Of a DNA stretch of 64,000 nt, positions 12,798 through 34,725 are shown piece by piece. Location of the stretch: positions 64,001 through 128,000 of the IMG/VR virus record IMGVR_UViG_3300045988_163643; one strand, given 5' to 3'. How positions within the stretch are numbered: the first letter of the stretch is position 1; every line of letters begins with the position of its first letter. The stretch is from a virus. A program made the translations under genes and the position numbers. Below the pieces are notes generated by a model, which saw only the letters and a program-made list of their open reading frames with translations, was not told the DNA's origin and did not search any database.

Positions 12798-12923
12798 TAT
12801 ACCAACTCCCTTTTATTTATCTTTATATTATCATTATATACTAGTATTTATATATTGTCAATAGAAAACCTAAAAATAATTTTTATTTTTAGGTTTCAGT
12901 AACTGAGGATATTAAATATCCTC

Positions 12924-13178
12924 TTAATACCATTTACCATACCTGCTTTCATATTCAACTAGTGTTATTATACTAAAATCAATCTCTGAATCTACTTCTG
13001 ATATTTCAACTATATAAGGTTTTCTATTGATAAAAACTTTTGTATCTGAAACATATTTTATATTGTCTAAAACCTTTTTTAAATTTTGTTTATTAAGTTT
13101 ATCTAGTATATTATCATATATACCTAATGTATACCCTTCACTTTTTATTTTATTTATTATAACCTCTTTATTTTTCAT
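12924..13178 (-). CDS. hypothetical protein
   Basis: 84 aa, SD TAGGAGGA. Confidence 0.5.
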   Translation of the reverse strand: MKNKEVIINKIKSEGYTLGIYDNILDKLNKQNLKKVLDNIKYVSDTKVFINRKPYIVEISEVDSEIDFSIITLVEYESRYGKWY

Positions 13179-13290
13179 TTTTTAAAATCCTCCTAATTAA
13201 TTTTTATACTATAATTATATCATAGTACTTATCTATTGTCAAGTAAAAATTTAAATTTTATTTTTAAATTTTCATAACTGAGGATTATAA

Positions 13291-13710
13291 TTAATCCTCT
13301 AAAGATATCAATATTTGTTTGAATATATTATTATCATTTAAATCTTTTATTATATTCTTTAAGTTATCATTTTTATTGCTATCTCTTACTATTAATTCTA
13401 TGTCTTCTTCTATGTAGTCAATAGAATCATAAACATATTCTTCATAGTCATATTGTGTATAACTTATTAATTCTCCATTGTCATTAAAATGGAATAAATC
13501 ATCATTAGAATTAAAGTTACCTTTTTCAACTTGTTCTATTAATTCTAATGGGTCTAGTTCTTCCATTAATTCATTGAATTCTTCTATGTCATGAACCATT
13601 AACCAATCTAAGTAAAAACTATTATAACTTATAACTTCAACAAGTTCTAATAAATCAGTATAATTATTTCTATCCTCTAAAGTTTTTCTTAAAGATTCAA
13701 ATTTATTCAT
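13291..13710 (-). CDS. hypothetical strongly acidic protein
   Basis: 139 aa, D/E-rich. The C-terminal LED* is encoded by the hairpin arm GAGGATTAA. Confidence 0.5.
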   Translation of the reverse strand: MNKFESLRKTLEDRNNYTDLLELVEVISYNSFYLDWLMVHDIEEFNELMEELDPLELIEQVEKGNFNSNDDLFHFNDNGELISYTQYDYEEYVYDSIDYIEEDIELIVRDSNKNDNLKNIIKDLNDNNIFKQILISLED

Positions 13711-13869
13711 AATAACAACTCCCTTTTATTTATTTTTTTTATTTATCTTTATACTATGTATTATATACTAGTGATTATATTATGTCAAGTGAAAATCTAA
13801 ATTTTATTTTTAAATTTTCATAAAAGTATTTGACTTTCAGTAACTGAGAATATAAAATTATATTCTCTT

Positions 13870-14199
13870 TTATATATTTAAAAATTCATTATCTTCTAAC
13901 ATTGTTACTTTATAATCATAATATTTTTTTATGACATCAATATCTTTTTCATCATATGCTATTATATAAGTATTACCTTCTACTTCTGCAACTTCTCCAA
14001 TGATAAAATTATTAAATCGTTCCAATGTTAAATCTTCCAATACAGAATCATCTTCTTCAAATAATTTTTCTTTTTCTTTTTCATCTTTTGCTAATAAATC
14101 AACTAAACATTCAAAATGTAAACTATTTTCTATGAGTTTTCCATTAGCTATGACAAAAGCATTTTTTCTATATAATTCATAATCATATTCTATTTTCAT
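13870..14199 (-). CDS. hypothetical acidic protein
   Basis: Start at ATG 14199 (AAGGGGA SD). Confidence 0.5.
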   Translation of the reverse strand: MKIEYDYELYRKNAFVIANGKLIENSLHFECLVDLLAKDEKEKEKLFEEDDSVLEDLTLERFNNFIIGEVAEVEGNTYIIAYDEKDIDVIKKYYDYKVTMLEDNEFLNI

Positions 14200-14314
14200 A
14201 TTTATCAATCCCCTTTTATTTATCTTTATACTATGATTATATATAGATAATTATATATTGTCAATAGAAAATAAAAAAATCCATATATTTTTACATATAT
14301 GGATTTTAAATATT

Positions 14315-15247
14315 TTATTTAAAATAATAATTCATATTATTTACAATTAAATCGGTAACATATAATAAGCCTTTTTTAGTTATGTAGATACCCTTAGAAT
14401 TATTATTTTTTTCATACATAAATAAATTTTTCTTTTTATTTCTATCTGTTAACCTTTCACTTGTTTTAAATTGCTTTTGTTTTATCATAAATTTATTAAA
14501 TAATGTTATCCCTATTTTCTTATGATAAAATTCATATTTATTAAATAAGTCTATATATTCTTTTTTACTCATAGTTGTATTATCATCTAAACTATTTAAA
14601 TAGGTTTTAAACTTATCTAAGTTAGTTATATTAATTATTGTTACATCATTATTTTTAGTGGTTAGATTTTTAGAGTTCTTATTTAAATCATCAATTTTAT
14701 CAGATAAATCTTTTATTATTTTAGATAATTCATTTATTGTTTTATTTTGTTCTTCTATTTTATTGAATAATTCTGTATTGTTTATTATTAGTGTTTCATT
14801 ATCAGAATTTTCATTTAAAATTATGCTAAGTATTTTACCTCTTATTTCTTGAGCAACTTTACTATCTCTTAATAACATAGCTATATTTAAAAAACATCTT
14901 TTATTTACTAATGTATTACTTTTATTGGCAAATCTTCTATCATCTGATATAAAATAACCTCTGTAGTTAGTAAGGAGTATTTTGTTCTCTACTAAAATTT
15001 TTCTTGTTTTATTGCCATTTAATATTAATAAACCATTATTAATTAATTCTTCTTTATGTCTTTGTATTAATCTTTTTATGCAATCATAATCGACTTCAAA
15101 ATATTCAGCCACTCTGTCAAGTGTTTCATATTCCATATTATTAATTGTAGTTATAGTTTTATATTTATTCATTATATTTAAACTTTTATTGTTATTTAAT
15201 ATCTCTCGTCTTAATTCTTCTTTTTCTAAAATATCATTTAATACCAT
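14315..15247 (-). CDS. ORF6N-like DNA-binding domain protein
   Basis: MEYETLDRVAEYFEVDYDCIKRLIQRHKEEL ... CFLNIAMLLRDSKVAQEIRGKIL. Start at ATG 15247 (AAGGAG SD). Confidence 0.45.
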   Translation of the reverse strand: MVLNDILEKEELRREILNNNKSLNIMNKYKTITTINNMEYETLDRVAEYFEVDYDCIKRLIQRHKEELINNGLLILNGNKTRKILVENKILLTNYRGYFISDDRRFANKSNTLVNKRCFLNIAMLLRDSKVAQEIRGKILSIILNENSDNETLIINNTELFNKIEEQNKTINELSKIIKDLSDKIDDLNKNSKNLTTKNNDVTIINITNLDKFKTYLNSLDDNTTMSKKEYIDLFNKYEFYHKKIGITLFNKFMIKQKQFKTSERLTDRNKKKNLFMYEKNNNSKGIYITKKGLLYVTDLIVNNMNYYFK

Positions 15248-15308
15248 TATTACCAACTCCTTTTATATATTTGCTTATATTATACTTAATGTTTTATTAA
15301 AAGTCAAT

Positions 15309-15489
15309 AAATACTCATAAAAATATTTAATTTTCCATAAATATTTAGAGGTTTCCCTTTTTAAAAGGGAAAACAAAATATCTTTAGCTTTAATTAATGT
15401 TTTATTATATATTATTCCCTTCCCTTTTTAAAGGGAGGCAAAATATATTAACATAAAAATACTCATAAAAATATTTAATTTTCCATAAA
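15309..15489. repeat. 33-bp perfect direct repeat pair, each followed by a CCCTTTTTAAA(A)GGG palindrome
   Basis: AAATACTCATAAAAATATTTAATTTTCCATAAA at 15309-15341 and 15457-15489. No ORF lies between them. Confidence 0.8.
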
Positions 15490-15671
15490 AATATACTTCT
15501 CTAAGCTATTTAAATGGATTCTAAGGCAGTTGTAACTGTTCAATGGATAAGTTATTCATTGAACTACAAACTCATATTTAAAATTAACTTTTGTCAAATT
15601 TTGTCGATTAATACCAAATAAAAAAACCCAAAGTTAAATTTAATTTTAACTTTGGGTTAACTGAGGATTAA

Positions 15672-16019
15672 TTAAAACCCTCTATTTGGGAAGGATAGAC
15701 TTCTACAGCCTATTATTCTTCCCTTTTCGTCACGTACTGATTGATTAACAAGTGCTAAATCAGTTCTAGTTTTACAAGCATTGGCAACCATAGCTGATAC
15801 AATTAATATAGTGTCGTCTTGTTGTGGAGGTAATCCTACAACATCACCAAAAGTATTATCAGTTATTGGAATTGATATTCCATTTACTAATAATGAACCA
15901 GCATCAGTTGTTGTTTGTGATACTCTTATAAGAGTGTTAGAAGATGGTACAGTAAGTATAATATTATTATCACTATCCATTATATTTATGTCATGTGGTG
16001 TACAGTTTAATATTTTCAT
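15672..16019 (-). CDS. hypothetical protein
   Basis: Start MKILNCTPHD at 16019, after the conserved TAGGAGGG leader. The track extension MKIFRRVLY is leader-derived. Confidence 0.5.
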   Translation of the reverse strand: MKILNCTPHDINIMDSDNNIILTVPSSNTLIRVSQTTTDAGSLLVNGISIPITDNTFGDVVGLPPQQDDTILIVSAMVANACKTRTDLALVNQSVRDEKGRIIGCRSLSFPNRGF

Positions 16020-16135
16020 ATATAAAACCCTCCTAAATATTTTCATTTTTAAATTTAATTATCATGAAAGTTTTTAACTTTCACGATTACTGAAGAAGAA
16101 ACTTATTTCCTTCTTCTTAAACTTCTATTTTATCC

Positions 16136-16459
16136 TTATAATTCAAAATATCCTTGTTGTATTCTTTCATTTAGAAGTTTTAAACCATCCGTTAATATTT
16201 TTTTACTTCTTGTGCTTCTTTTTAATACATTTACTTTTTTTATGTTGTCTATATTAGCCACATATATATCTCCATCAGCTTTTTTATATTCAAGTTTCAT
16301 ATAATGTTCATAAGTTCTTCCACAACGTTCTGCATATCTTATAGCATTCATTTTACCTTCAACTATTTGTCCATCTGTAAAAGTTATTTGTATTAAATCA
16401 CCTTTTTTTAATTCCATTTCGTATATATCTTTAACCATTTTATAAAATCTCTCTCTCAT
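16136..16459 (-). CDS. hypothetical protein
   Basis: 107 aa, SD TAGGAGGG. Confidence 0.5.
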   Translation of the reverse strand: MRERFYKMVKDIYEMELKKGDLIQITFTDGQIVEGKMNAIRYAERCGRTYEHYMKLEYKKADGDIYVANIDNIKKVNVLKRSTRSKKILTDGLKLLNERIQQGYFEL

Positions 16460-16594
16460 AATATAAACCCTCCTAAAAATTTAATTTATATTTATTAACT
16501 ATATAATAACATAGTGTTTATATAAAGTCAATAAATATTTTAATTATCATGAAAGTTTTTAACTTTCACGATAACTGAGGATTAATATAATCCT

Positions 16595-16834
16595 CTATAA
16601 ATAATATTTGTAATTAATTTTACTGTTATTATAACAAGCTTTAGCAGTTTTATAAGCTGATAAACTTCTACTTATATGTATACCAAAAGTTTTATTTGCT
16701 ATTTTAACCGCTTGATTAAGACTTAATATTTTGTTGTTTACTGCAAAGTATAAACAAGGATATAATGTAACTATTGCCCATTTATTACTCTTAGCATTAA
16801 CCTTTTTACCATTAACAATATATATTTTATTCAT
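16595..16834 (-). CDS. hypothetical protein
   Basis: Start MNKIYIV at 16834, after the conserved leader. Confidence 0.5.
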   Translation of the reverse strand: MNKIYIVNGKKVNAKSNKWAIVTLYPCLYFAVNNKILSLNQAVKIANKTFGIHISRSLSAYKTAKACYNNSKINYKYYL

Positions 16835-16919
16835 ATATAAAACCCTCCTAAATATTTTCATTTTTCTAATTAATTTTCACAAAACCTTTTAACTTTCAGC
16901 AATAACTGAGGATTTATAA

Positions 16920-17099
16920 TTAATCCTCTACAAATATTTCTAAGATATCCTCTTTAAAATCCCACGCTTCAAGATGCTTATAGCTTACATTATGCTCTTT
17001 TGCCTCTTCTCCAACGTCTAAATCGGATATTCCTTTTATACTGTATCTATCTACTAAATTTTTAAATGTTTCAGTTACTTTAAATTGATATCTTTTCAT
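16920..17099 (-). CDS. hypothetical 59-aa protein
   Basis: MKRYQFKVTE...ILEIFVED, SD TAGGAGGA. The final ED* is encoded in the hairpin arm. Below the track cutoff. Confidence 0.45.
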   Translation of the reverse strand: MKRYQFKVTETFKNLVDRYSIKGISDLDVGEEAKEHNVSYKHLEAWDFKEDILEIFVED

Positions 17100-17242
17100 A
17101 ATATAAAATCCTCCTAAATTTTCATTTTTTTATTTAACTTTCATTTATATTATATATCAGCTTTTATATAAAGTCAATAAATGATATAAATGAAATTCCA
17201 AAGTTAGATTTAATTTTAACTTTGGAAATAACTGAAAAAGGA

Positions 17243-17509
17243 TTAATAAGTTAAAAATCCCTTTTCTTTATAACTTGTCATTTTAAAACCTAATTTTTCA
17301 TTTAATGTTTCTATATTGTCTAATATAAAAATTTTATCATTATGATTTAAATAAGATATTTCATACTCTTTTTCATTGTTTATACTCCAAGATAATATTA
17401 TATTATGTTCTTCCAGAGCATTTAATATAATATTAATATCCTTATAATCCTTTTCCTCTGCATAAAATACTTTTAAGTCTATTTTATTTATATTTATTTC
17501 TTTTTTCAT
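17243..17509 (-). CDS. hypothetical protein
   Basis: 88 aa, SD TAGGAGGG. Confidence 0.5.
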   Translation of the reverse strand: MKKEININKIDLKVFYAEEKDYKDINIILNALEEHNIILSWSINNEKEYEISYLNHNDKIFILDNIETLNEKLGFKMTSYKEKGFLTY

Positions 17510-17587
17510 ATATAACCCTCCTAAATAATTTCATTTTTTTAATTAATTTTCACAAAAGTTTTTAATTTTTGCTAACTGAGGATTATA

Positions 17588-17953
17588 TTAATCCTCTTCT
17601 ATTATTTCTTCATATTCTGCAATTGTAACTTCATTGTATATTTCATTTACCATGTACTCAAAAGCTAACCAACTTAGGTTATTAGCATCTACTTCAAAGT
17701 TAGGACTTAAGTTGTCTTTTACATTATTATATATTTCAAATATTTCTTCCATATGTTTAATAAAAAAGCATTTAGTTTCAGATAAGTAAATTAACTCTGA
17801 AACCATACCACTTGAACAACCATATTGAAGAACTTCTTCTAAAAATGCCATTGGATTTTCATAATCATCAATATGATTAAGAATTATATCAATAACATTA
17901 TCCTTTAGTTCGTTTTCTCCATACATATTTTCTAAAAAAGTATTTAATTTCAT
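17588..17953 (-). CDS. YGC(S/I)SG-motif acidic protein, paralog family member
   Basis: About 60% identical by eye to 21777..22133 (LQYGCSSGMVSELIY...NNLSWLAFEYM). Confidence 0.55.
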   Translation of the reverse strand: MKLNTFLENMYGENELKDNVIDIILNHIDDYENPMAFLEEVLQYGCSSGMVSELIYLSETKCFFIKHMEEIFEIYNNVKDNLSPNFEVDANNLSWLAFEYMVNEIYNEVTIAEYEEIIEED

Positions 17954-18034
17954 ATAAAACCCTCCTAAATATTTTCATTTTTTTATTTAATTTTCATAAA
18001 AGTAATTAACTTCTATGAGCAACTGAGGATTATA

Positions 18035-18385
18035 TTAATCCTCTATGCTATACGCCATGCACATATTAAAATCATCTTTACTGAAATCTATTATTATAAA
18101 ACTACCATTTTTATTATTATGTTTATACCATGTTGTGCCTGTTAGTCCATTTAGCCATGATTTTTTACCTTTTTTTTCGCCTTCTAATATTTCAAATACT
18201 ACTTCATTGTTACTGTATCGAATTCCTTTTCTCTTGCATATGTTTTTAGTTAATGAAACATATTTTTCATTTTCCATATTTAATAAACTTTCAGCTTTTT
18301 CTAGGTTAACATATCCATTTAAAACTAATTTTGATATACTCTCTCTTAATTCTATCATACCTTGTTTTTTAGTTATTTTATTCAT
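18035..18385 (-). CDS. hypothetical protein
   Basis: 116 aa, SD TAGGAGGG. Preferred over the antisense ORF 18045..18431. Confidence 0.5.
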   Translation of the reverse strand: MNKITKKQGMIELRESISKLVLNGYVNLEKAESLLNMENEKYVSLTKNICKRKGIRYSNNEVVFEILEGEKKGKKSWLNGLTGTTWYKHNNKNGSFIIIDFSKDDFNMCMAYSIED

Positions 18386-18532
18386 ATTATACCCTCCTAA
18401 AATTTTAATTATTAACTATATTATAGTTTAAGAGCTATATAAAGTCAATAAATATTTTAATTTTCATGAAAGTTTTTAACTTTCAGGAATAACTGAGGAT
18501 TAATTAAAACCCTCTATATTAGATAATACTAT

Positions 18533-18730
18533 TTAAAAGTTTACATTTATAACCTTATATTCTAGTATTAAACCTTTTCTACTTGTTATTTCAGCATGTA
18601 CTTTATAACCTTTTCTCTCTATTATAAAGCTTTTAGAAAAATTACTATCTTTAGTTTTTCCACTCATAGAAATTAACTTGAAACCGTCATTTTGTAATTC
18701 TTTAAAAAAATCATTTTCTTTCATTATCAT
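18533..18730 (-). CDS. hypothetical protein
   Basis: 65 aa, SD TAGGAGGG. Confidence 0.45.
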   Translation of the reverse strand: MIMKENDFFKELQNDGFKLISMSGKTKDSNFSKSFIIERKGYKVHAEITSRKGLILEYKVINVNF

Positions 18731-18846
18731 ATTATACCCTCCTAAATTTTATTTATTAACTATATTATAATATAATGCTTATATAAAGTCAATAAATATT
18801 TTAATTCTCATGAAAAATTTTAACTCTGAGCAACTGAAGAAGGATT

Positions 18847-19182
18847 TTATTTTCCTTCTTCTACTTCTTTATTAAATAAGCTTTTTATTTTTTTAGAAAA
18901 CTTTTTATCCTTTGTCACGTCATAAAATCTAAATTCATTATAAAAAGTATATTCTTTTATAGCTTCTAAATGCGAATTAATCGCTTGAGTTGTAGAACTT
19001 GTATCATAATTACAATTATCAACTATTATTTTATTTTCAAGAGTATCAATAATCATAATGATATTTCCATGATATGTTAAATAGTAACTATCTTGAAGTT
19101 TTTCCATTTTATGATTACCTACTTTAATCATAATATCACCATTCATAATAGATTTAAATATTTTTTCACTATATTTTCTCAT
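18847..19182 (-). CDS. hypothetical protein
   Basis: 111 aa. The C-terminal EEGK* is encoded by the hairpin arm GAAGAAGGAAAATAA. Confidence 0.5.
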   Translation of the reverse strand: MRKYSEKIFKSIMNGDIMIKVGNHKMEKLQDSYYLTYHGNIIMIIDTLENKIIVDNCNYDTSSTTQAINSHLEAIKEYTFYNEFRFYDVTKDKKFSKKIKSLFNKEVEEGK

Positions 19183-19304
19183 AATAAAAACCCTCCTAAA
19201 TATTCATTTATTAACTTCATTGTAACATAATGTTTATATAAAGTCAATAAATATTTTAATTTTTACCAAAAGTTTTTTAAACTTTCAGTTACTGAAGAAG
19301 GATT

Positions 19305-19523
19305 TTATTTTCCTTCTTCTAATTTTTCATTTATATTATTCAACCAATCAAATATTTTGTCTTGTTGGTCGTATAAATCATTATTGAAAGGGTACTGCTC
19401 TGTAATTAATTCATTTATATTAATATTGTTTTCCCTTTCAGCTTTTTCTAATTGCATTGTAAAAATATATAAACTTTCCTTCAATTCTGAAATACTATTC
19501 ATTAATTCTTTTTTATTTTTCAT
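19305..19523 (-). CDS. hypothetical protein
   Basis: 72 aa with the same EEGK* hairpin-encoded tail. Confidence 0.5.
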   Translation of the reverse strand: MKNKKELMNSISELKESLYIFTMQLEKAERENNININELITEQYPFNNDLYDQQDKIFDWLNNINEKLEEGK

Positions 19524-19640
19524 ATTATACCCTCCTAAAACTCATTTATTAACTTTATTGTAGTATAACTATTATATAAAGTCAATAAATATTTTAATTT
19601 TCACAAAAGTTTTTTTAACTTTTGTTACTGAAAAAGAGAA

Positions 19641-19961
19641 TTAATTCTCTTTTTCTTTTCTAAAACGGAATTCAATTATATTTTTATCTCTATGATTTTT
19701 TATTAGATTTATTTCAGCTTCAGCTTGTTGGTCGTTGTCATACATGAATAACTTGTCAATGTCTGTTCTGTGGTTTAAACAATAAACTAAAAAACCGACT
19801 CTTGTTGCACCTTCATATTGAAAATAAATTAATTCATTTTCAAGATTAATTCTAACTTTAGTTATCCATATTTTTTCATTTATTTTCTTTTCATATTTTA
19901 TCATGTCGATTATTTTATCCATATTCTTTAATAATTCACTTCTTATTTCTTTTTTATTCAT
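19641..19961 (-). CDS. hypothetical protein
   Basis: Start MNKKEIRS at 19961, after the TAGGAGGG leader. Confidence 0.5.
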   Translation of the reverse strand: MNKKEIRSELLKNMDKIIDMIKYEKKINEKIWITKVRINLENELIYFQYEGATRVGFLVYCLNHRTDIDKLFMYDNDQQAEAEINLIKNHRDKNIIEFRFRKEKEN

Positions 19962-20047
19962 ACAAAACCCTCCTAAAAATTTCATTTTCAAGATTAATTT
20001 TAATTTTAATCTTGTAACTGAAAAGGGGAAACTTAATTCCCCTTTTC

Positions 20048-20230
20048 TTAAAGTGTATCTAAAAAATCATTAACCATTGTAACTTCTTCAGGAGATAATA
20101 ATATCTCCATATGGCAATAATTAGAGTTAATATAACTATTTTCAAAAGTTATATTAATTTCATGTAAAAAGTTCATTAATAAATTAGCTTCTTTTTTACT
20201 TAATTCAATATTATAATATTTTTTATTCAT
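20048..20230 (-). CDS. hypothetical protein
   Basis: 60 aa, SD TAGGAGGG. Confidence 0.45.
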   Translation of the reverse strand: MNKKYYNIELSKKEANLLMNFLHEINITFENSYINSNYCHMEILLSPEEVTMVNDFLDTL

Positions 20231-20355
20231 ATATAAAACCCTCCTAAAATTTTAATTATTAACTATAATATAATCATTATATAAAGTCAATAAATATTTT
20301 AATTCTCATGAAAAATTTTAATTCTGAGCAACTGAAGAAGGAAAAACCCTTCTTC

Positions 20356-20595
20356 TTATAAATTTTCAACTTCTATGCTTATAATTGTATTACAGTTACA
20401 AGTTATTAAGAATCCTACTTTACTTTTTAAAGACTTTACAAATAGTCCTTGAAAATAATCACCTTTACAATATGAATTTTTAGGACTATAGCCTATAGTA
20501 TTCATAAAAGGTATTATTCTTTTTTCACCTTTTGCAATATTTATTTCTTTTATTTCCTCTTCATTAAATTTTTCCATTAATTCATAATTTTTCAT
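20356..20595 (-). CDS. hypothetical protein
   Basis: 79 aa, SD TAGGAGGG. Confidence 0.45.
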   Translation of the reverse strand: MKNYELMEKFNEEEIKEINIAKGEKRIIPFMNTIGYSPKNSYCKGDYFQGLFVKSLKSKVGFLITCNCNTIISIEVENL

Positions 20596-20673
20596 ATATA
20601 AAACCCTCCTAAATTTTTAATTATCATGAAAGTAATTAACTTTCAGCAACTGAAGAAGGAAAAACCTTTCTTC

Positions 20674-20853
20674 TTAGTCAATGAAAAAATCAATTGAATT
20701 TTTAGAAAATAATACATTAAATTTATGAAAAAATTCAATATCTATTTGAGAATTTTTTTCATTGAAAAATGATTGAATATTATAATCTTCAAAATATACT
20801 TTTGTATTTACTACTATTGTTAATAATAATATTATATTTATTATTTTTTTCAT
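20674..20853 (-). CDS. 59-aa protein with N-terminal hydrophobic segment
   Basis: MKKIINIILLLLTIVVNTKV..., SD TAGGAGGG. Below the track cutoff. Confidence 0.4.
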   Translation of the reverse strand: MKKIINIILLLTIVVNTKVYFEDYNIQSFFNEKNSQIDIEFFHKFNVLFSKNSIDFFID

Positions 20854-20918
20854 ATATAAAACCCTCCTAAAATTTTAATTTATTCAGTAATTTAAATTAC
20901 TGTAACTGAAGAAGAAAA

Positions 20919-21713
20919 TTAAATTTCTTCTTCTTCCATACTTTCTATATTATTTACTTTATTTTCAATAATCAAAAAGAATTCGTTTGCTATTGATTCA
21001 AAAGTTGCCCATACTATTTCAGTATAATTGAATTTATTGATAGATATTTCATCTTTTTCAATTAATGTATTAAAGTAATTTTGTATTTCATCTAAATTAT
21101 TTATGAAGAATTTTTTTATATTAGTATTATATTTTAACTCAAATATTGCTTCAGAGCAACCATTTTTTCTAAATTCATCTATGAATTCTTTAACATGATT
21201 TAAGCATTCAAAAGTCTTAATATATTTTTCTAATATATCTAATACTTCATTTTTTAAATTACTTTTACTTCTTAATTCTTCTTCCATTGTAATTAATAAA
21301 GTGTCCATTTTTTTATTATTGTCTATGTCTTCTTCCATGCTCTCGACAAAATTTATTTCATCTTCTATTTCATAGAAAAATTCTTTTGCTATGAATTCAA
21401 AAGTTACGGAAGCTATTTCAGTATAATTGAATTCATAGATAGATATTTCACCTTTTTCAATTAATGTATTAAAGTAATTTTGTATTTCATCTAAATTATT
21501 TATGAAGAATTCTTTTCTATTATTATAACGCATTAATTCAGGTATTACACCTATTAAGCTGACACCTTCCATAAAGTCCCTAACTTCTTCTAAATCTTTA
21601 CATTCTTTAATATGATTTATTAACATATCTAATACTTCATTTTTCAAATTACTTTCTTCCTTCATGTCTTCTATACCATTTAATAACATTTCTATTTTTT
21701 CACTATTTCTCAT
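20919..21713 (-). CDS. tandemly duplicated YGC-family-related protein
   Basis: Two internal repeats (NEVLDM/ILINHIKE...FFINNLDEIQNYFNTLIEK(G/D)EISI) related to 17588 and 21777. Confidence 0.55.
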   Translation of the reverse strand: MRNSEKIEMLLNGIEDMKEESNLKNEVLDMLINHIKECKDLEEVRDFMEGVSLIGVIPELMRYNNRKEFFINNLDEIQNYFNTLIEKGEISIYEFNYTEIASVTFEFIAKEFFYEIEDEINFVESMEEDIDNNKKMDTLLITMEEELRSKSNLKNEVLDILEKYIKTFECLNHVKEFIDEFRKNGCSEAIFELKYNTNIKKFFINNLDEIQNYFNTLIEKDEISINKFNYTEIVWATFESIANEFFLIIENKVNNIESMEEEEI

Positions 21714-21776
21714 ATAAAACCCTCCTAAAAATTTAATTTATTCAGTAATTTAAATTACTGTTACTGAAGAAGAAAA

Positions 21777-22133
21777 TTAAACTTCTTCTTCTTCCATTGT
21801 TTCAACTTCATTATATATTATACTTGTCATATATTCAAAAGCTAACCAACTTAAATTATTTGCGTTTACTTCAAAATCAGGACTTAAATTATCTTTAAGT
21901 TGATTGTAAATGTCGAATATTTCTTCTATATGTTTAATGAAGAAACATTTTGTTTCATTAAAGTATATTAATTCAGGCACTGTACCACTAATACAACCGT
22001 AATTCATAACATCTTCTAAAAATCCTTTTTCTACTTCATAATTTTCTATATTGTTTAAGATTATATCAATAACACTATCCTTTAATTCGCTTTCTCCATA
22101 TAAATTATTTAATAATTCACTATATTTTTTCAT
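21777..22133 (-). CDS. YGC(S/I)SG-motif acidic protein, paralog family member
   Basis: MNYGCISGTVPELIYFNETKCFFIKHIEEIF...NNLSWLAFEYM. Confidence 0.55.
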   Translation of the reverse strand: MKKYSELLNNLYGESELKDSVIDIILNNIENYEVEKGFLEDVMNYGCISGTVPELIYFNETKCFFIKHIEEIFDIYNQLKDNLSPDFEVNANNLSWLAFEYMTSIIYNEVETMEEEEV

Positions 22134-22249: not shown

Positions 22250-22582
22250 TTATTCTTCAATTTTAAAATTCTTTATCTCAAGTCCATAATTGACTTGAGA
22301 CTTTCTATTTGTGTATTTTTTAACTTTTGCCCTAAATGTCAACTTTTGTCCTTCTTTAATGTTTTCCTTAAATATTTTCTTTGTAACACTACTTATCATG
22401 TCACAAAGACAATGACAACATATAAAATCATTGTTTTGATATATATTGTTTATCAATGCAACTTTTCTACACCCTCTTTTTTCAATTCGGTTAAAAGTTC
22501 CTTTGAATTCGACAATACTATCATTTAGTTTTTCAAGTTCTTTTCTATATTCATATCTTCCGTTTTTAGAATTAATATACAT
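22250..22582 (-). CDS. hypothetical protein (first gene of the leftward arm)
   Basis: 110 aa, SD AAGGGGGA. Confidence 0.5.
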   Translation of the reverse strand: MYINSKNGRYEYRKELEKLNDSIVEFKGTFNRIEKRGCRKVALINNIYQNNDFICCHCLCDMISSVTKKIFKENIKEGQKLTFRAKVKKYTNRKSQVNYGLEIKNFKIEE

Positions 22583-22599
22583 TTAAAATCCCCCTTTTT

Positions 22600-23040
22600 T
22601 TAACAAACAAGGGATTTTATAATTCCTATACCTTTTCCTATAACTGAAAAGGAAAAAATCCTTTTCCGTTTTTTTTAGGAGGAGGGAACATATTTAATTA
22701 TATAATAGGATTTTTATCATTGACCTCCTATGCCCTTGTAAATAGTCAATGACTGTTAAGTACTAAAACCTAACTTTTGATTATTACCTTATAACCCTCT
22801 GAGCACTTTTCAAAAGTTCCGACTTAAAAAGTATGAGTTCGTAAGTACTTATTAGAATTAATCTAACAGTTTACCTATATAACCTTTGATAATAGGGTTT
22901 TTATCAAAAGCACCTTTTAAGTTTTCCCTTTTGCCAGTTACCTAAAAGTTGTAAGATAATGCTTAATTCTATCAGGTGATATATTAAGCTTCTATTATAT
23001 ACCCTAAGCGTATAGCTTAAGGATTTTTTATTTCTTTTAT
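22600..23040 (-). other. ~0.4-kb untranslated leader / candidate structured RNA downstream of the triple promoter
   Basis: No ORF on either strand. Visibly higher GC than its surroundings. Several local hairpins (CCTTAAGC..GCTTAGGG, CTTTGATAATAGGGTTTTTATCAAAG, GGAGG..CCTCC). Confidence 0.3.
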
Positions 23041-23047
23041 TACCTTA

Positions 23048-23076
23048 ATTGTATCAGGTCTTTTATTTAATGTCAA
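23048..23076 (-). promoter_or_regulatory. early promoter P1, TTGACA-17-TACAAT
   Basis: Exact -35; part of a ~100-bp module repeated three times. Confidence 0.6.
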
Positions 23077-23150
23077 GTACTTTTTAAAAATCTTTTAAAA
23101 CTTTTTAAGTAGCTCCTAAGTTGTTTTCCTAAGTTGTTATTTATACTTAT

Positions 23151-23179
23151 ATATTATCATGTCTTTTATCTAATGTCAA
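23151..23179 (-). promoter_or_regulatory. early promoter P2, TTGACA-17-TAATAT
   Basis: Same module, including the AAACTTTTAAAACTTTTTAAGT...CCTAAGTTGTT repeat. Confidence 0.55.
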
Positions 23180-23249
23180 CTATTTTTTTTAAAAAACTTT
23201 TAAAACTTTTTAAGTGCTTTCCTAAGTTGTTATTTATTTTATTAACTTA

Positions 23250-23278
23250 ATTGTATTTAACCTCTTATCTAATGTCAA
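23250..23278 (-). promoter_or_regulatory. early promoter P3, TTGACA-17-TACAAT
   Basis: Third copy of the module. Confidence 0.6.
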
Positions 23279-23299
23279 CTATTTTTTTTATGTTTTTTT

Positions 23300-23420
23300 A
23301 TGTTTTTTGTATACATTAAAATGAATATTGTATTTTTTATATTGTATACATTATTTTGTATATTGTATTTTGAATAATGAATTTTGTATATTGTTTAATG
23401 TATACAGTATACCTATACTC
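23300..23420. repeat. TGTATA(C/T)-type short-motif array, block 1
   Basis: TGTATACA, TGTATATTGTAT and ATGTATACAGTATAC motifs, closely spaced. Confidence 0.7.
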
Positions 23421-23596
23421 TTTTATATTGATTTTCAAAATTCATATTTCTATTTTATTTTTTTCTAATATTGCCGTGTGACGTGATATAAGGCAATTTA
23501 AGGATTTTCAGAGCAGTTACTGTATAATTTATTCAATTGATTAATATATCCTCTTATATTGCCTTATATGGATACATGAAAACTTTTAAAAAATTA

Positions 23597-23624
23597 TTGA
23601 CATTAAATAAAGTTATGCTATCAT
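23597..23624 (+). promoter_or_regulatory. candidate promoter TTGACA-16-TATCAT
   Basis: Exact -35, imperfect -10. About 45 nt upstream of the small ORF. Confidence 0.4.
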
Positions 23625-23667
23625 TATATTAAATATTAATAAAATTAAATAAAGGTGGTTGATTGAA

Positions 23668-23865
23668 TTGAAGAAATATAGTATAGAAATAAAAGGCAAT
23701 ATATGGACAAGAGAATTAATTATAAATATATGCAGGGAAAAATCAATTAAATATAATGTAACAGAGTTATTAAGTGGATTAAAATATTGTATGCAATTAA
23801 ATGATTTAGGCTTTTGGGACTATCATTATTTCAATAGACTTAAAAAAATAGAAGAGAAAAAATAG
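23668..23865 (+). CDS. 65-aa hypothetical protein (TTG start)
   Basis: GGTGG SD 9 nt upstream of TTG 23668. Followed directly by a terminator. Confidence 0.4.
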   Translation: MKKYSIEIKGNIWTRELIINICREKSIKYNVTELLSGLKYCMQLNDLGFWDYHYFNRLKKIEEKK

Positions 23866-23891
23866 TAGAGACTGCTCTGCTATTTTTTTTA
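23865..23891 (+). terminator. rho-independent terminator
   Basis: AGTAGAG-ACTG-CTCTGCT stem followed by a T8 run. Confidence 0.6.
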
Positions 23892-24090
23892 TTGTATATA
23901 TGAATAACTGTTCATATGTTTATATGTTTAATTGTATGCAATATACTATATAATGCATCATGTATACAATATAATATATCATGTATTGTTTATTATGTAT
24001 AGTGTATAATGTATGCAATATTATGCATATTGTATCTTGTATGCAATATATAATATACTGTATGTAATATTATGTATATTGTATTATATT
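23890..24090. repeat. TGTAT(A/G)CAATAT array, block 2
   Basis: TGTATACAATATAAT at 23961. TGTATGCAATAT at 23933, 24010 and 24040. Confidence 0.75.
23897..23916. promoter_or_regulatory. palindrome ATATGAA-TAACTG-TTCATAT (SOS-box-like)
   Basis: 7-bp perfect arms. Related copies at 24528-24549, 24602-24622, 24662-24681 and 24929-24948. Confidence 0.5.
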
Positions 24091-24424
24091 AGTTAACTTG
24101 TAAACTATTATCATATTGATAATAAATAATACTTGACAAATAAACAGTTGTTCTGTAATCGAACGTAGCATATTTTATAATGTTTGTCAACAGTTATTTT
24201 TAGCTAAAAAGTTTAGTATAAGTAAACAATGCAAGTGTGAAACCATTGAAAATACTATATTATCATATTGATAAATTTACAAATACTAAGAAAAAATCAT
24301 GACCCATTTAAATCGATTCTAAGAGGGCGAACAAAATCCCTCTTTATAGTTAATCCTTTATATGAAGTCACTCTATACAGAGCTTTAAAATCGACGGTAA
24401 AAGGTCGGTATATATTTTTAAAAA

Positions 24425-24900
24425 GGTGACTATACATTTTATTGTATGTAATATATTGTATACAATTTATTATCATAATGATAATATATGAATAGATATT
24501 CAGGTATTCATATATAGAATTGTATAACATATGAATAACTGTTCATATGTTTAATTATTCAATCGTATTAGTTGATTTGTGAACTACTATCAATATGATA
24601 ACATATGAGTGATTGTTCATATAATATGTATAATGTATACAATATAATGTACTATGTATACGTATGAGTAACTGTTCATATATTCATATATATACTGTAT
24701 AGTGTATAATGTTTATTGTATACAATATAATATACTATGTATGATATATTATGTATGTTGTACTATGTATACAATATAATGTATAGTGTACTATGTACTA
24801 TGTATGGTGCATGATATGTAGTGTACTATGTATGGTGTATACAATATAATGTACTATGTATGATATACTATGTATGTTGTACTATGTATACAATATAGTT
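24425..24900. repeat. TGTATACAATATA array with ~115-bp tandem duplication, block 3
   Basis: TGTATACAATATA at 24634, 24717, 24766, 24836 and 24886. Long repeat GTACTATGTATGATATA(T/C)TATGTATGTTGTACTATGTATACAATATA occurs twice. Confidence 0.8.
24528..24549. promoter_or_regulatory. palindrome CATATGAA-TAACTG-TTCATATG
   Basis: 8-bp perfect arms. Confidence 0.5.
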
Positions 24901-24969
24901 GATAAGTGAACTATTATCAATATGATAACATATGAGTTACTGTTCATACGTTCATATGATAGTATGATA

Positions 24970-24981
24970 GAACAACTGTTC
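24970..24981. promoter_or_regulatory. perfect GAAC-N4-GTTC (Cheo/LexA-box-like)
   Basis: Reads GAACAACTGTTC. A reverse-orientation GAACAACTGTTT lies at ~24145-24156. Confidence 0.4.
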
Positions 24982-25173
24982 CTATGATGTTCTATGTTAG
25001 TAGAACATATGGTACAATAATCGAACTGCATAGAATTGATTGTAAGGCGTTTGCGTGATGTTCTTCTTATGTTACATCGTTGATAGTGTTCCTTCTCTTA
25101 TATTGCCTTGTATTGCCTCATAAGGTTACATTGAAAAAATTAGTGTATTAGAGAAAAAATTTTCATAGGATTG

Positions 25174-25202
25174 TTGACACGGAAAAGGGTAACTGCTATA
25201 AT
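25174..25202 (+). promoter_or_regulatory. consensus sigmaA promoter TTGACA-17-TATAAT
   Basis: Both hexamers perfect, 17-nt spacer. Confidence 0.7.
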
Positions 25203-25239
25203 TATGTTAATAAAAGATAAATAAAAGGGAGTTGATAGT

Positions 25240-25401
25240 ATGAAGAAGTTATTATTTGTTTTGGTGATTTTAGGAGTTATGGTGATTTTTAAGGACTGCT
25301 TATTAATAGGTTTAATGGATATTGTTGATTTTGTGGGTAACTTGTTTAACTTGAATACCGTTGTATTAATTGACTTCTTAAATAATTTATATTATTTATA
25401 A
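25240..25401 (+). CDS. 53-aa hydrophobic peptide
   Basis: MKKLLFVLVILGVMVIFKDCLLIGLMDIVDFVGNLFNLNTVVLIDFLNNLYYL. SD AAGGGAG. Perfect promoter and strong terminator. Below the track cutoff. Confidence 0.5.
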   Translation: MKKLLFVLVILGVMVIFKDCLLIGLMDIVDFVGNLFNLNTVVLIDFLNNLYYL

Positions 25402-25408
25402 GAGGAAT

Positions 25409-25441
25409 AAGTGGGATATATTTTATCCCACTTATTTTTTT
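25409..25441 (+). terminator. rho-independent terminator
   Basis: AAGTGGGA...TCCCACTT stem followed by a T-run. Confidence 0.7.
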
Positions 25442-25464
25442 ATGAAATATGCTCAGGTGATTTT

Positions 25465-25615
25465 ATGTATATTGTATGGTGTGTGGTGAATAGTGTATAC
25501 AGTATTTTTTATTATGTATAATGTATTGTTTATTGTATTGTATATTGTATTATGTATTGTATTATGTTTATTGTATAATGTATTGTATAATGTATAATGT
25601 ATATTATGTATATAT
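25465..25615. repeat. TGTAT-type array, block 4
   Basis: Runs of ATTGTAT, ATGTATAATG and TTGTATAATG. Confidence 0.7.
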
Positions 25616-25685
25616 GGTGATATAAAAGAATTTTATATATTTTTATAAAATATTATATTTTAAAAAGCCAGTGCTCTGTATAAAA

Positions 25686-25770
25686 TTTTAGGGAATTTTG
25701 TGGGGAATTTTAGGGAATTTTAGGGAATTTTAAGGATTTTATAGGGGGACTCTGAAAATTTTGTGGGATA
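25686..25770. repeat. helically phased GGGAATTTT(A/G) repeats
   Basis: Six to seven units at 10-12 bp spacing (TAGGGAATTTT, GTGGGGAATTTT, ...). Confidence 0.75.
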
Positions 25771-26160
25771 TATAATAGGGGGTGGGTCGGGAAAAATCCC
25801 ACCAAGGATTTTATATGTACAGGATTTTAAAAAACAGTTCTTAGAGAACTATTTACAAATTCGACACGAAGGGGGTAGTTTATGTATAATTCGACAAAAT
25901 TCTACACAAATATGAGTCTAGTCCCTTTATCTACACACTATTAAATTTCATCAAAATATTATTAAATTTCACTAATATTTCATCAATATTAAATTTACAA
26001 GATTAATCATATATAAAAATAATACTCTAAAACGCACTATAAAAATACATCACATTGTATACACAACATTGTATACACGATTGTACATTACCACACCACC
26101 ATCCATACACCACCTATTCCCCTATAACAAGCAATGAAATAAAAAGGAGGGGGGTACTTT

Positions 26161-26271
26161 ATGATAATATCAATTATCAAATCAATAATATCACTTCCCC
26201 TTATATACACTATCCCAATAAAATCCAATAAAAATAACTTAAAAATAACTATAAAAAACGTACTATTTTAA
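26161..26271 (+). CDS. candidate 36-aa peptide
   Basis: Strong AGGAGGGGGG SD ~10 nt upstream of the ATG. No promoter identified. Confidence 0.25.
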   Translation: MIISIIKSIISLPLIYTIPIKSNKNNLKITIKNVLF

Positions 26272-26409
26272 ATCAATTTCAGTATATTTTTAATCAAAAA
26301 CATACCATTTTCGACCAATTTTGTTACATTTTTGTACCATTTTAACCTAAAATAATCATAAAATATACGATATACCATATAAAAAGTAATGTATCAAAAT
26401 CATATAAAG

Positions 26410-26454
26410 TTATCCACAATTTCAACAAAGTTATCCACAGAATAATGTGGATTA
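26410..26454. promoter_or_regulatory. DnaA-box cluster
   Basis: Two perfect TTATCCACA boxes (26410-26418, 26431-26439) and one inverted 8/9 box, TGTGGATTA (26446-26454). Confidence 0.6.
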
Positions 26455-26538
26455 AAAATAACGATAAATCACGAAAATATTAATATGTCTATTTTTATAA
26501 TCCCTCAAATCTCATTTTTTAAAGGTAAATAAAAAAAA

Positions 26539-26592
26539 TGTACGGTTAACCGAATAAGAAAAAATCCTACAAAAAATACATGGTTAACCGTA
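26539..26592. repeat. 12-bp inverted repeat GTACGGTTAACC / GGTTAACCGTAC
   Basis: Perfect arms, 30-bp spacer. Each arm contains the palindrome GGTTAACC. Confidence 0.8.
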
Positions 26593-26667
26593 CTCAAGAA
26601 ATTAAAACAAATAAAATACATGATTAATGATATATAAAAACGATATAACATTATTGATGCTTAAAAA

Positions 26668-26700
26668 GAGTAAAAAAATAACCTACTTATAATAGTAGGC
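26668..26700 (-). terminator. terminator downstream of the fibre operon
   Basis: CCTACT...AGTAGG stem with a T-run on the minus strand. Similar to the hairpin at 36962. Confidence 0.55.
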
Positions 26701-26749
26701 TATCTTAATTTATCTTTTTTCTTACGCAATTGATTCATATTGTGTAAAT

Positions 26750-33618: not shown

Positions 33619-34725
33619 ATGTTAAAAGCATATAAATTTAGATTATATCCAAATAAAGAACAAGAAGAACTAATTCAAAAAACTTTTGGTTGTTGTAGAT
33701 TTGTCTATAATCAAACATTATCTTATAGAAAAGAAATATATGAAACACAAAAAAAATCTATGAATAAAACTTCTTGTAACGATTATTGCAATCAAGTTCT
33801 TAAAAAGGAATATAAATGGTTAAAAGAAGTTGATAAATTTGCTCTTACAAATGCAATTTATAATATGAATTCTGCATATCAAAGATTTTTCAAAGGATAT
33901 TCTAATTATCCAAAATTCAAAAGTAAACGAAATAATAAAAAATCATATTCTACTAATTTTACTAATAACAATATTGAAATATCCTTTGAGAGCAATAAAA
34001 TCAAACTTCCAAAACTTAAATGGGTTAAAACTAAAATTCATCGTGAGTTTGTAGGTAAAATTAAATCAGCAACTGTTTCACAAGTTTCTAGTGGTAAATA
34101 TTATATATCTATATTAGTAGAGCAAGAAATAAAAGAATTACCTAAAAATGAATTTACAGTTGGTATAGATTTAGGATTGACTGATTTTGCTATAACTAGC
34201 GATGGAGTTAAGTATAGTAATCCTAGATATTTACGAAAATCATTAAATAAATTAGCTAAAGAACAAAGAAAATTATCTAGGAAGAAAAAAGGTAGTAAAA
34301 ATAGAAATAAACAAAGAATAAAAGTTGCTAGGGTGCATGAGAAAATAACTAATCAAAGAAAAGATTTCTTACATAAATTATCTTCTGAACTTATAAACGA
34401 AAACCAAGTAATATGTTTAGAAGATTTACAAGTAAAAGAGATACAACAAAATAAATATTTATCTCAATCTGTATCAGATGTTGGTTGGTATGAATTTAGA
34501 AGACAATTAGAGTATAAAGCTAAATGGTATGGTAGAACAATATCTTTTGTTGATAAATGGTATCCTTCTAGTCAAATATGTAGTAATTGTGGAAATAATA
34601 CTGGTAAAAAAACATTAGATATAAGAGAATTTGATTGTCCATATTGCGGAAGACATCATGATAGAGATATAAATGCAAGTATTAATATATTAAATGAAGG
34701 ATTGAGAATATTAAATAATAAATAA
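33619..34725 (+). CDS. tnpB: TnpB (IS200/IS605-family OrfB, RuvC-like RNA-guided nuclease)
   Basis: MLKAYKFRLYPNKEQEELI N-terminus. RuvC D (GIDLGLTDFA), E (ICLEDLQV), zinc finger CSNCG...CPYCG, and D (HDRDINASINI). Confidence 0.85.
   Translation: MLKAYKFRLYPNKEQEELIQKTFGCCRFVYNQTLSYRKEIYETQKKSMNKTSCNDYCNQVLKKEYKWLKEVDKFALTNAIYNMNSAYQRFFKGYSNYPKFKSKRNNKKSYSTNFTNNNIEISFESNKIKLPKLKWVKTKIHREFVGKIKSATVSQVSSGKYYISILVEQEIKELPKNEFTVGIDLGLTDFAITSDGVKYSNPRYLRKSLNKLAKEQRKLSRKKKGSKNRNKQRIKVARVHEKITNQRKDFLHKLSSELINENQVICLEDLQVKEIQQNKYLSQSVSDVGWYEFRRQLEYKAKWYGRTISFVDKWYPSSQICSNCGNNTGKKTLDIREFDCPYCGRHHDRDINASINILNEGLRILNNK

Follow-up and report, generated by a model that had tools for sequence, protein, structure and literature searches.

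Contiguous 7-bp repeat arrays in a conserved control region of an SPβ-like gut phage have the layout of a cooperative protein-binding platform

What is the role of the dense TGTATA-rich repeats that crowd a single intergenic gap of a large phage genome? The question is raised by a 64,000-nucleotide stretch of viral DNA (positions 64,001 to 128,000 of IMG/VR record IMGVR_UViG_3300045988_163643), referred to here as the window, which has a GC content of ~24% and in which two blocks of minus-strand genes are separated by a gap at 22583–26749. A long operon of small early genes lies to the left of the gap, beginning with the gene of a 110-residue protein that ends at 22582, and a late operon with a 1079-residue CotH/Big_2/LamG tail-fibre-like protein lies to the right. 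A 197,676-bp scaffold from a human-gut metagenome matches the window and holds the gap near 78–82 kb, and the element is, as judged from its sequence, an SPβ-like temperate siphophage of ~198 kb. A preliminary description of the locus had reported a 2.3-kb non-coding region filled with motif arrays; the non-coding gap that contains it extends over 4.2 kb. Within this gap, we identified ~100 contiguous 7-bp units (heptads), organized into five to seven arrays.

Printed in rows of seven nucleotides, the repeat blocks resolve into gap-free runs of 7-bp units in the frame TWNTGTA. Most units point forward, and arrow mapping places single inverted units in the same register. A logo for which each unit was called from its neighbours only, comprising 79 units on the plus strand and seven on the minus strand, reads T (.75), G/A (.56/.29), T (.87), A (.80), T (.80), W, and N. 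Where a forward unit meets an inverted one, TGTA abuts TACA and the junction forms the palindrome TGTATACA; the exact 13-mer of the preliminary description is such a pair, in which the ...TGTA of a forward unit runs into the TACA... of an inverted one. Within arrays, the TGTATACA junctions are 28–70 bp apart, always at a multiple of seven, in every genome examined. The heptads, which share the core TGTA/TACA, cover ~0.75 kb of DNA. Four blocks had been counted originally; the arrays number five to seven. An automatic array caller detects arrays in the gap only and none on either strand in the other ~60 kb of the window.

The frequencies of individual motifs depart strongly from expectation. 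At least six exact copies of TGTATACAATATA had been claimed; there are eight, six on the plus strand and two on the minus strand, all located at 23338–24897, where 0.00 are expected. The three copies of TGTATGCAATAT are confirmed, against 0.02 expected, as are the dozens of half-sites: TGTAT is present in 59 forward and 14 reverse copies within 23290–25620, an interval that occupies 3.6% of the window length yet holds 29% of its forward TGTAT copies. The proposed 10-bp palindromic core TTGTATACAA occurs only twice, and the palindrome that recurs is the 8-mer TGTATACA, found 14 times in the window (two expected) and 13 times inside the gap. We compared the region with a first-order Markov model trained on the region itself, as the preliminary description had suggested, and found 25 TGTA pairs at a lag of seven nucleotides versus 0.76 expected, with a maximum of five in 500 simulations. 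TGTA pairs are likewise enriched at lags 14, 21, 28, 35, and 42, and the best self-similarity lags are all multiples of seven. Promoter-like hexamers are not in excess inside the arrays (54 vs 48.5 in shuffled sequence).

All arrays were mapped on the plus strand. Array 1 (23284–23409), present in all relatives, consists of 18 contiguous units with the arrow map ).)><)>)><>>))>)>< and, preceded by two 10-bp T-tract repeats, starts ~30 bp upstream of the −35 element of the outermost leftward early promoter. Array 2 (23923–24090) has 24 units, begins just past the terminator of a 68-residue gene, and holds all three copies of TGTATGCAATAT, which are degenerate inverted units. Two mini-arrays of five units each follow: 3a (24433–24467; <>.><), which contains one of the two TTGTATACAA palindromes and has an invariant length of 35 bp in relatives, and 3b (24624–24658; >><>>). 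Array 3c (24693–24902) comprises 30 units, >>)><)>)>>><>>>>).>>><>>)>>><, with inverted units 49, 70, and 49 bp apart. It carries the internal tandem duplication noticed earlier, which measures 119 bp (17 × 7, or 17 units) instead of ~115 bp, and whose copies are 82% identical over 97 nt and 88% identical over the best 75 nt. Array 4 (25456–25624), just past the terminator of a 53-residue gene, varies more between relatives than any other array; its ~24 units are interrupted by a single frame slip near 25538. Mini-array 5 (26053–26080; ><><), which lies outside the interval first described, has two TGTATACA palindromes 14 bp apart.

The arrays are a stable feature of this phage family. Nine related genomes (L001–L005, L010–L012, and L134), retrieved from IMG/VR, ENA, NCBI, and Logan assemblies, share the five to seven array positions, the logo, and the polarity, with a total of 360 forward and 107 inverted strong units. 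The arrays persist despite turnover in copy number and swaps of the neighbouring genes. In the five closest relatives (L001–L005), array 2 measures 211, 211, 204, 162, and 204 bp, with all differences being multiples of seven, a test that is clean for array 2 only and not for the other arrays. Identity in a multiple alignment is 0.91–0.93 at heptad positions 1, 3, 4, and 5 and 0.77–0.83 at positions 2, 6, and 7, a contrast that mis-registered alignment within repeats could inflate; because mis-registration would give the same pattern, these values point to constraint on the core across units and not to orthologous positions being strictly conserved. When 2.9 million viral contigs were scanned for the forward-forward-inverted-forward layout, extended arrays were recovered in this family only, in addition to two short arrays in one unrelated contig, L006. 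A plain run of five TGTATNN units was discarded as a family marker: it is common, occurring in at least 119 unrelated viral contigs, and 102 of 117 such runs elsewhere are perfect microsatellites with a single spacer. L006 and the other contigs have no genes in common with the window and were not accepted as relatives, and a near-identity search of the region against GenBank phages and plasmids gave no match. The exceptional statistics, confinement to one gap, conservation in nine genomes, core-versus-spacer constraint, and a layout like that of known cooperative arrays agree with the earlier statement that this is not random AT-rich DNA. They support the view that selection acts on the arrays and that their layout is that of a cooperative binding platform with one dimer per unit.

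Contiguous 7–8-bp units are the known signature of ribbon-helix-helix (RHH) proteins such as omega, whose sites in plasmid pSM19035 (omega/ParB sites) consist of 7–10 consecutive heptads in either orientation, with one RHH dimer per heptad and a need for at least four contiguous units (PMC9499535). With 5–30 contiguous direct and inverted 7-bp repeats, the arrays described here reach this minimum. We tentatively favour, as a plausible reading, that a small dimeric protein coats the duplex DNA of these arrays cooperatively and in a sequence-specific manner, making them platforms that organize a control hub. One dimer would occupy each 7-bp unit. Binding would start at the forward/inverted junctions that generate TGTATACA, and coating would then fill the in-register degenerate units between junctions. 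Since a 7-bp repeat would rotate successive sites by ~240°, the protein would wind around the ~0.75 kb of array DNA in five to seven segments. These nucleoprotein segments would bracket each of three small rightward transcription units and border the tandem early promoters on their upstream side. In the main control hub, which separates the late operon from the early one, they would form an architectural or insulating scaffold that can be switched. The same hub would integrate LexA-like boxes, DnaA boxes, and two families of palindromic operators (described below). Protein binding, the one-dimer-per-unit stoichiometry, and the insulating or silencing role are all features that we infer from the sequence pattern.

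The placement of the arrays fits an architectural or insulating role, as they lie directly after both mini-gene terminators and upstream of the outermost early promoter, off the strong promoters. The preliminary description had noticed two tiny gene islands, and both are genuine genes, intact in all relatives and conserved as open reading frames (ORFs). The first encodes a 68-residue protein, p68 (23659–23865, plus strand), and has a promoter (TTGACA-16-TGnTATCAT) at 23597–23624 and a terminator at 23855–23890. The second encodes a 53-residue hydrophobic peptide, p53 (25240–25401, plus strand), and has a perfect consensus promoter (TTGACA-17-TATAAT with TG) at 25174–25202 and a hairpin terminator at ~25405–25445. 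Its orientation is opposite to that of the flanking operons, a layout that recalls the SPβ type-I toxin yonT/spbT or a moron; no antisense RNA was identified for it. TATTGCC direct repeats are found upstream of both mini-gene promoters. To these we add a third island at ~24130–24420, which is non-coding. This unit (24133–24420, plus strand) has a TTGACA promoter overlapped by a GAAC-N4-GTTT box (24142–24153) and two hairpin terminators (~24322–24349 and 24390–24409), and it is 93% conserved without an ORF. A structured RNA is unsupported for this island (z = −0.6), and Rfam and tRNA scans of the gap returned nothing above threshold.

Several observations weigh against the coating platform. Pfam and PHROGs screens of ~80 window proteins, combined with precomputed Pfam hits in the 10 kb beyond each end, revealed no RHH, helix-turn-helix (HTH), or partition domain, no ParA, and no initiator. 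The strong promoters (23597, 25174, and 23048–23278) are outside the arrays and have other candidate operators, whereas omega sites overlap the promoters of copy-control and partition genes; the arrays here flank transcription units instead and are much longer than any known omega-type site. The limits noted above for the indel test and for the core-versus-spacer comparison count on the same side. Two candidate readers are disfavoured. For p68, we found no match to a DNA-binding fold, and Foldseek returned nothing at E<0.001 in PDB or BFVD. Furthermore, in L134 a ~30%-identical protein, P0041, replaces p68 together with promoter-adjacent DNA (L134 5800–6200 vs window 23480–23870), and this swap leaves the heptads and both palindrome families unchanged and the flanking repeats retained. 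The other protein, p110 (22250–22582, minus strand), is the product of the first early gene, a basic protein of 110 residues with a CCHCLC motif and a predicted OB fold. Its Foldseek matches are Stn1/Ten1, SSB, RPA, and tRNA-synthetase anticodon domains, with a probability of 1.0 and a TM score of ~0.5. OB folds typically bind single-stranded DNA or RNA, so p110 is unlikely to act on duplex heptads, and we rejected it as the reader.

We also considered p68 as an RHH- or omega-like reader and rejected it as the leading candidate, given that it has no family and no fold match and is disfavoured by its natural replacement in L134, which leaves the heptads unchanged. Its AlphaFold model consists of a β-hairpin and three helices (predicted local distance difference test, pLDDT, of 74), it has no Pfam or PHROG match, and a profile search of 1.8 billion proteins recovered P0041 as its one remote full-length homologue. 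Both p68 and p110 belong to narrow families (at least 74% and at least 80% identity, respectively), with no wider relatives for a covariation test. A Pfam screen of 48 further window proteins likewise identified no RHH, HTH, or partition domain; the larger unannotated window proteins had no ParM-, TubZ-, or ParA-like match among PDB sequences; and proteins 42281 and 7387, named as candidates in the preliminary description, have no detectable family. The candidates for a reader are a small unrecognised protein encoded elsewhere in the ~198-kb genome, an MrpR-like paralogue, or a host factor. A more specific proposal is possible but on balance doubtful: an unrecognised small protein of phage or host origin could polymerise on the ~100 heptads of this integrative SPβ-like phage as an omega-like nucleoprotein filament of ~0.75 kb split into five to seven segments, forming chromatin-like boundaries or silencing domains around autonomous prophage-expressed units and linking LexA, DnaA, and repressor inputs of the lysis-lysogeny hub.

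Of the competing explanations, the one that survives best, although we consider it unlikely, is that the arrays are expanded operator clusters for MrpR-like master repressors of the tyrosine-recombinase fold, with the heptads as multimerised SPBRE-type half-sites and the repressor coat maintaining lysogeny. The early operon continues beyond the window with an antirepressor, sigma-like genes, YopX, a tyrosine integrase, two MrpR-like proteins, and a ligase. Specifically, L170 15601–18459, past the left end of the window, encodes the tyrosine integrase, two tandem MrpR-like paralogues, and then an ATP-dependent DNA ligase. Both paralogues have the Pfam domains MrpR_N_CB and MrpR_C_cat and 24–26% identity to SPβ YopR over ~220 residues, and on these sequence matches they are true but distant homologues of SPβ MrpR. 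In SPβ, MrpR binds a repeated element, SPBRE (PMC10516654). The SPBRE that we derived from nine of the ten published SPβ MrpR peak regions, TATACATATTWTTTGTATTTGT, has the form ATACA-N7-TGTAT and shares its TGTAT/ATACA core with the arrays; five copies of ATACA-N6-TGTAT are present in the window, where 0.65 are expected, and all of them fall inside the gap (for instance TATACATTATTTTGTAT). The spacing of these half-sites is nevertheless off by 1 bp, and a matrix of the SPβ sites reaches at most 16 bits in the window, compared with 22–30 bits for true sites, and places only one of its top 50 hits in the gap. This matrix scan rules out the arrays as copies of SPBRE, and the resemblance of the TGTAT/ATACA half-sites is only a lead. 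Recombinase-fold half-sites are usually 11–15 bp and not 7 bp long, and the SPβ element is dispersed at about ten promoters and not concentrated in one region. A motif-agnostic detector that does recover the arrays of the window found no 7-bp periodic arrays in the 95 kb of SPβ scanned, and we therefore do not regard arrays as a general trait of the SPβ family.

The SPBRE role is better suited to a separate cassette. At least eight copies of this ~150-bp element are dispersed between small early genes at ~12800–21800 of the window, for example, at 16440–16610, 18360–18535, 18710–18870, 19150–19335, 19495–19660, and 20210–20350. Each consists of a hairpin terminator, a palindrome (TGAAAGTT-N5-AACTTTCA), a TTGACT-17-TATAAT promoter, AGTTAATAAAT, and a ribosome-binding site, TTTAGGAGGG. 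The distribution of the cassette is analogous to that of SPBRE in SPβ.

It is less likely still that the arrays belong to a replication origin, as iterons or an easily unwound element that would act with nearby DnaA boxes and with transcription of the rightward units. A DnaA-box cluster at 26410–26454, with two perfect TTATCCACA boxes exactly 21 bp apart and one inverted box matching at eight of nine positions, speaks for an origin. It is invariant in the eight mapped genomes and lies within 26283–26583, the most conserved non-coding segment of the gap (96–98% pairwise identity, above that of the mini-genes and neighbouring genes). Firmicute phage origins are often non-coding, repeat-rich, and located between gene clusters, and the unrelated contig L006 also pairs TGTATA heptads with forward-forward-inverted DnaA-like boxes. 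Against this, the DnaA boxes are 0.8 kb past the last large array, no initiator gene adjoins the gap, and phages of the SPβ type carry replisome genes of their own. The genes flanking the gap all share one direction, and the local GC skew changes from positive to negative near 25900, the opposite of the origin pattern. Known iterons are usually 17–22 bp long and helix-phased, in contrast to contiguous 7-mers; origins of this kind have the direct repeats beside an initiator gene, together with an AT-rich unwinding element and, in many cases, DnaA boxes.

Further sequence features were noted. An inverted pair, GTACGGTTAACC...GGTTAACCGTAC, is located ~100 bp to the right of the cluster. Repeats of the 10-bp AATTTTAGGG type (25684–25746; four to six copies, one to four in relatives) form a canonical G-quadruplex motif, G3-N7-G4-N7-G3-N7-G3, followed by a G-free, C-containing tract at ~25900–26400. 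In L006 (IMGVR_UViG_3300033741_000108, 102.5 kb), two short TGTATA heptad arrays at 1350–1680, one with the map >>><>>, lie ~90 bp from the DnaA-like boxes, beyond which is a long G-free, C-rich tract. The association between heptads and DnaA boxes may thus recur independently in the two elements.

We regard as improbable a third alternative, in which the arrays are the partition centromere of a plasmid-like prophage, that is, the parS of a type Ib (omega/delta-like) or type II/III system whose bound protein also regulates adjacent promoters. The layout matches that of the pSM19035 parS, the genome is large at ~198 kb, and no integrated copy of the element was found in 185,579 species-representative genomes (GTDB). 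However, the screens of the window and its flanks revealed no ParA, ParM, TubZ, or RHH protein, and the tyrosine integrase and SPβ-type lysogeny genes point to integration. The heptad consensus is not WATCACW, and the arrays do not overlap promoters of partition genes.

Even less probable is that the arrays are neutral by-products of replication slippage in an AT-rich spacer, devoid of any binding function. Copy number does differ between relatives, arrays 1 and 4 are the least conserved and most indel-rich parts of the gap, array 3c contains the 119-bp duplication, and TGTATNN runs are frequent in unrelated viral contigs. Slippage, however, duplicates whole units, whereas here the core is constrained and the spacers differ: the 76 units scored in the window represent 32 distinct heptads, and no exact run of five is present. 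A simple microsatellite would have near-identical units that vary uniformly; the arrays have diverse units, position-specific constraint, and inverted units in register. They also keep their five to seven sites and their polarity across nine genomes and are absent from the other 60 kb of equally AT-rich DNA.

The weakest alternative, which we consider highly improbable, makes the gap a feature of virion DNA (a packaging start, a terminal-repeat boundary, or a T5-like injection stop, with repeats that bind terminase or hold the DNA during entry): its position between the end of the late tail-fibre operon and the start of an early operon with three or four tandem strong promoters is suggestive, and the T5 injection-stop region is also conserved, non-coding, repeat-rich, and near pre-early genes (bioRxiv 10.1101/866236), but the gap is internal in all long contigs, SPβ synteny (terminase yonF between yonG and yonD) puts the terminase ~30 kb away, and the T5 mechanism is itself only a hypothesis. 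The preliminary description had proposed a multi-site binding array that might be a centromere, origin iterons, a silencer or scaffold, or a packaging signal; the layout fits a binding array, and no one of these four roles is singled out.

The arrays share the gap with other conserved elements, and all element classes keep their order in eight mapped genomes. Gene content immediately right of the gap varies from one relative to another. The early operon is driven by three tandem leftward promoters of the sigma-A type (23048–23278, minus strand; TTGACA-17-TACAAT or TAATAT) set in ~100-bp repeats; relatives have four. The 458-nt leader that separates these promoters from the first early gene (22583–23040, minus strand) folds at −125.9 kcal/mol versus −85.2 kcal/mol for shuffled sequence (z = −7.5), is 89–96% conserved in eight genomes, and has no counterpart in Rfam. 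This segment may regulate the ~20-kb early operon as a large structured leader, perhaps through antitermination.

Two palindrome families are candidate operators. The b palindromes, TATGAR-N6-TTCATA, start at 23899, 24530, 24604, 24663, and 24931, with a degenerate copy near 24487. The motif has seven matches versus 0.23 expected, all copies in the window lie within 23899–24948, and they are conserved in relatives. The c palindromes, TATCA-N3-TGATAA, at 24108, 24260, 24470, 24588, and 24914 (spanning 24108–24928), are confined to the gap, with nine matches versus 0.25 expected. Three c palindromes abut a b palindrome to form a composite module of ~55–76 bp, and the modules at 24546–24621 and 24873–24948 bracket array 3. 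In addition, two LexA-like GAAC-N4-GTTY boxes occupy fixed positions in the eight mapped genomes. The perfect LexA/Cheo-box-like sequence GAACAACTGTTC is at 24970–24981, the same position in all eight. Outside the gap, homologues of YonG, YonD, YonB, YomX, YomW, YomV, and YomN and a tape-measure protein are encoded beyond one side of the window. An IS605-family OrfB/TnpB gene (33619–34725, plus strand; domains HTH_OrfB_IS605, OrfB_IS605, and a Cas12f1-like TNB) lies among the tail-fibre genes, and a related copy is found at a different place in L011.

The locus provides a compact, conserved 4.2-kb hub in an uncharacterised clade of ~198-kb SPβ-like human-gut phages and thus a well-defined experimental target. 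To our knowledge, contiguous heptads read by one dimer per unit come from a single plasmid family (Inc18/omega), where they couple gene control to segregation. The arrays suggest that mobile elements may more generally organise their control regions by cooperative coating of short contiguous units, and they imply an undiscovered reader protein. If a polymerising protein does coat the heptads, this would constitute a new phage regulatory architecture, and the protein would either represent a new family or put the MrpR fold to a new use. Should the arrays be neutral, they would caution that conserved position and motif are insufficient to infer function.

Four known systems place the gap in context. 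In SPβ, the yonR–yonX region, located between the late and early operons, likewise has small autonomous units with promoters and terminators of their own; one of them carries the small toxin-type peptide gene yonT/spbT. The arrangement of the p68, non-coding, and p53 units is parallel, but the units have no protein homology to those of SPβ, which lacks repeat arrays between them. The T5 injection-stop region is ~1.7 kb of non-coding DNA with direct repeats, palindromes, and DnaA boxes (bioRxiv 10.1101/866236). Like the gap, it is a large non-coding region with a conserved order of elements, dense direct repeats and palindromes, and DnaA boxes, next to the earliest genes and variable neighbouring coding regions. 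There is no similarity in sequence or layout, and the repeats in T5 do not form contiguous heptads; T5 itself is virulent, infects Gram-negative hosts, and has known terminal repeats, and the function of its region is also unproven. SPBRE comes from the same phage lineage, which encodes MrpR-like proteins, and has the TGTAT/ATACA half-site. It is a repeated cis-element tied to lysogeny control, and we count the arrays alike in this respect. Unlike the arrays, SPBRE is a single site of ~15–22 bp that overlaps about ten dispersed promoters.

The closest parallel is provided by the omega sites of pSM19035. Both systems distribute contiguous, gap-free 7-bp units over several separate arrays in the replicon and mix forward and inverted orientations within one register. 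Both also have a low-GC Firmicute background and an implied cooperative coat of one dimer per unit. They differ in consensus, TWNTGTA (T-R-T-A-T-W-N) here versus WATCACW in pSM19035, and in size, with 5–30 units per array (~100 in all) versus 7–10. They also differ in their carriers, the phage being SPβ-like with an integrase and without RHH or ParA in the window proteins and flanks screened. The use of contiguous heptads for cooperative binding is therefore already known; new here are the absence of recognisable partner proteins, the motif, the type of replicon, the position relative to promoters, and a number of units approximately ten times larger.

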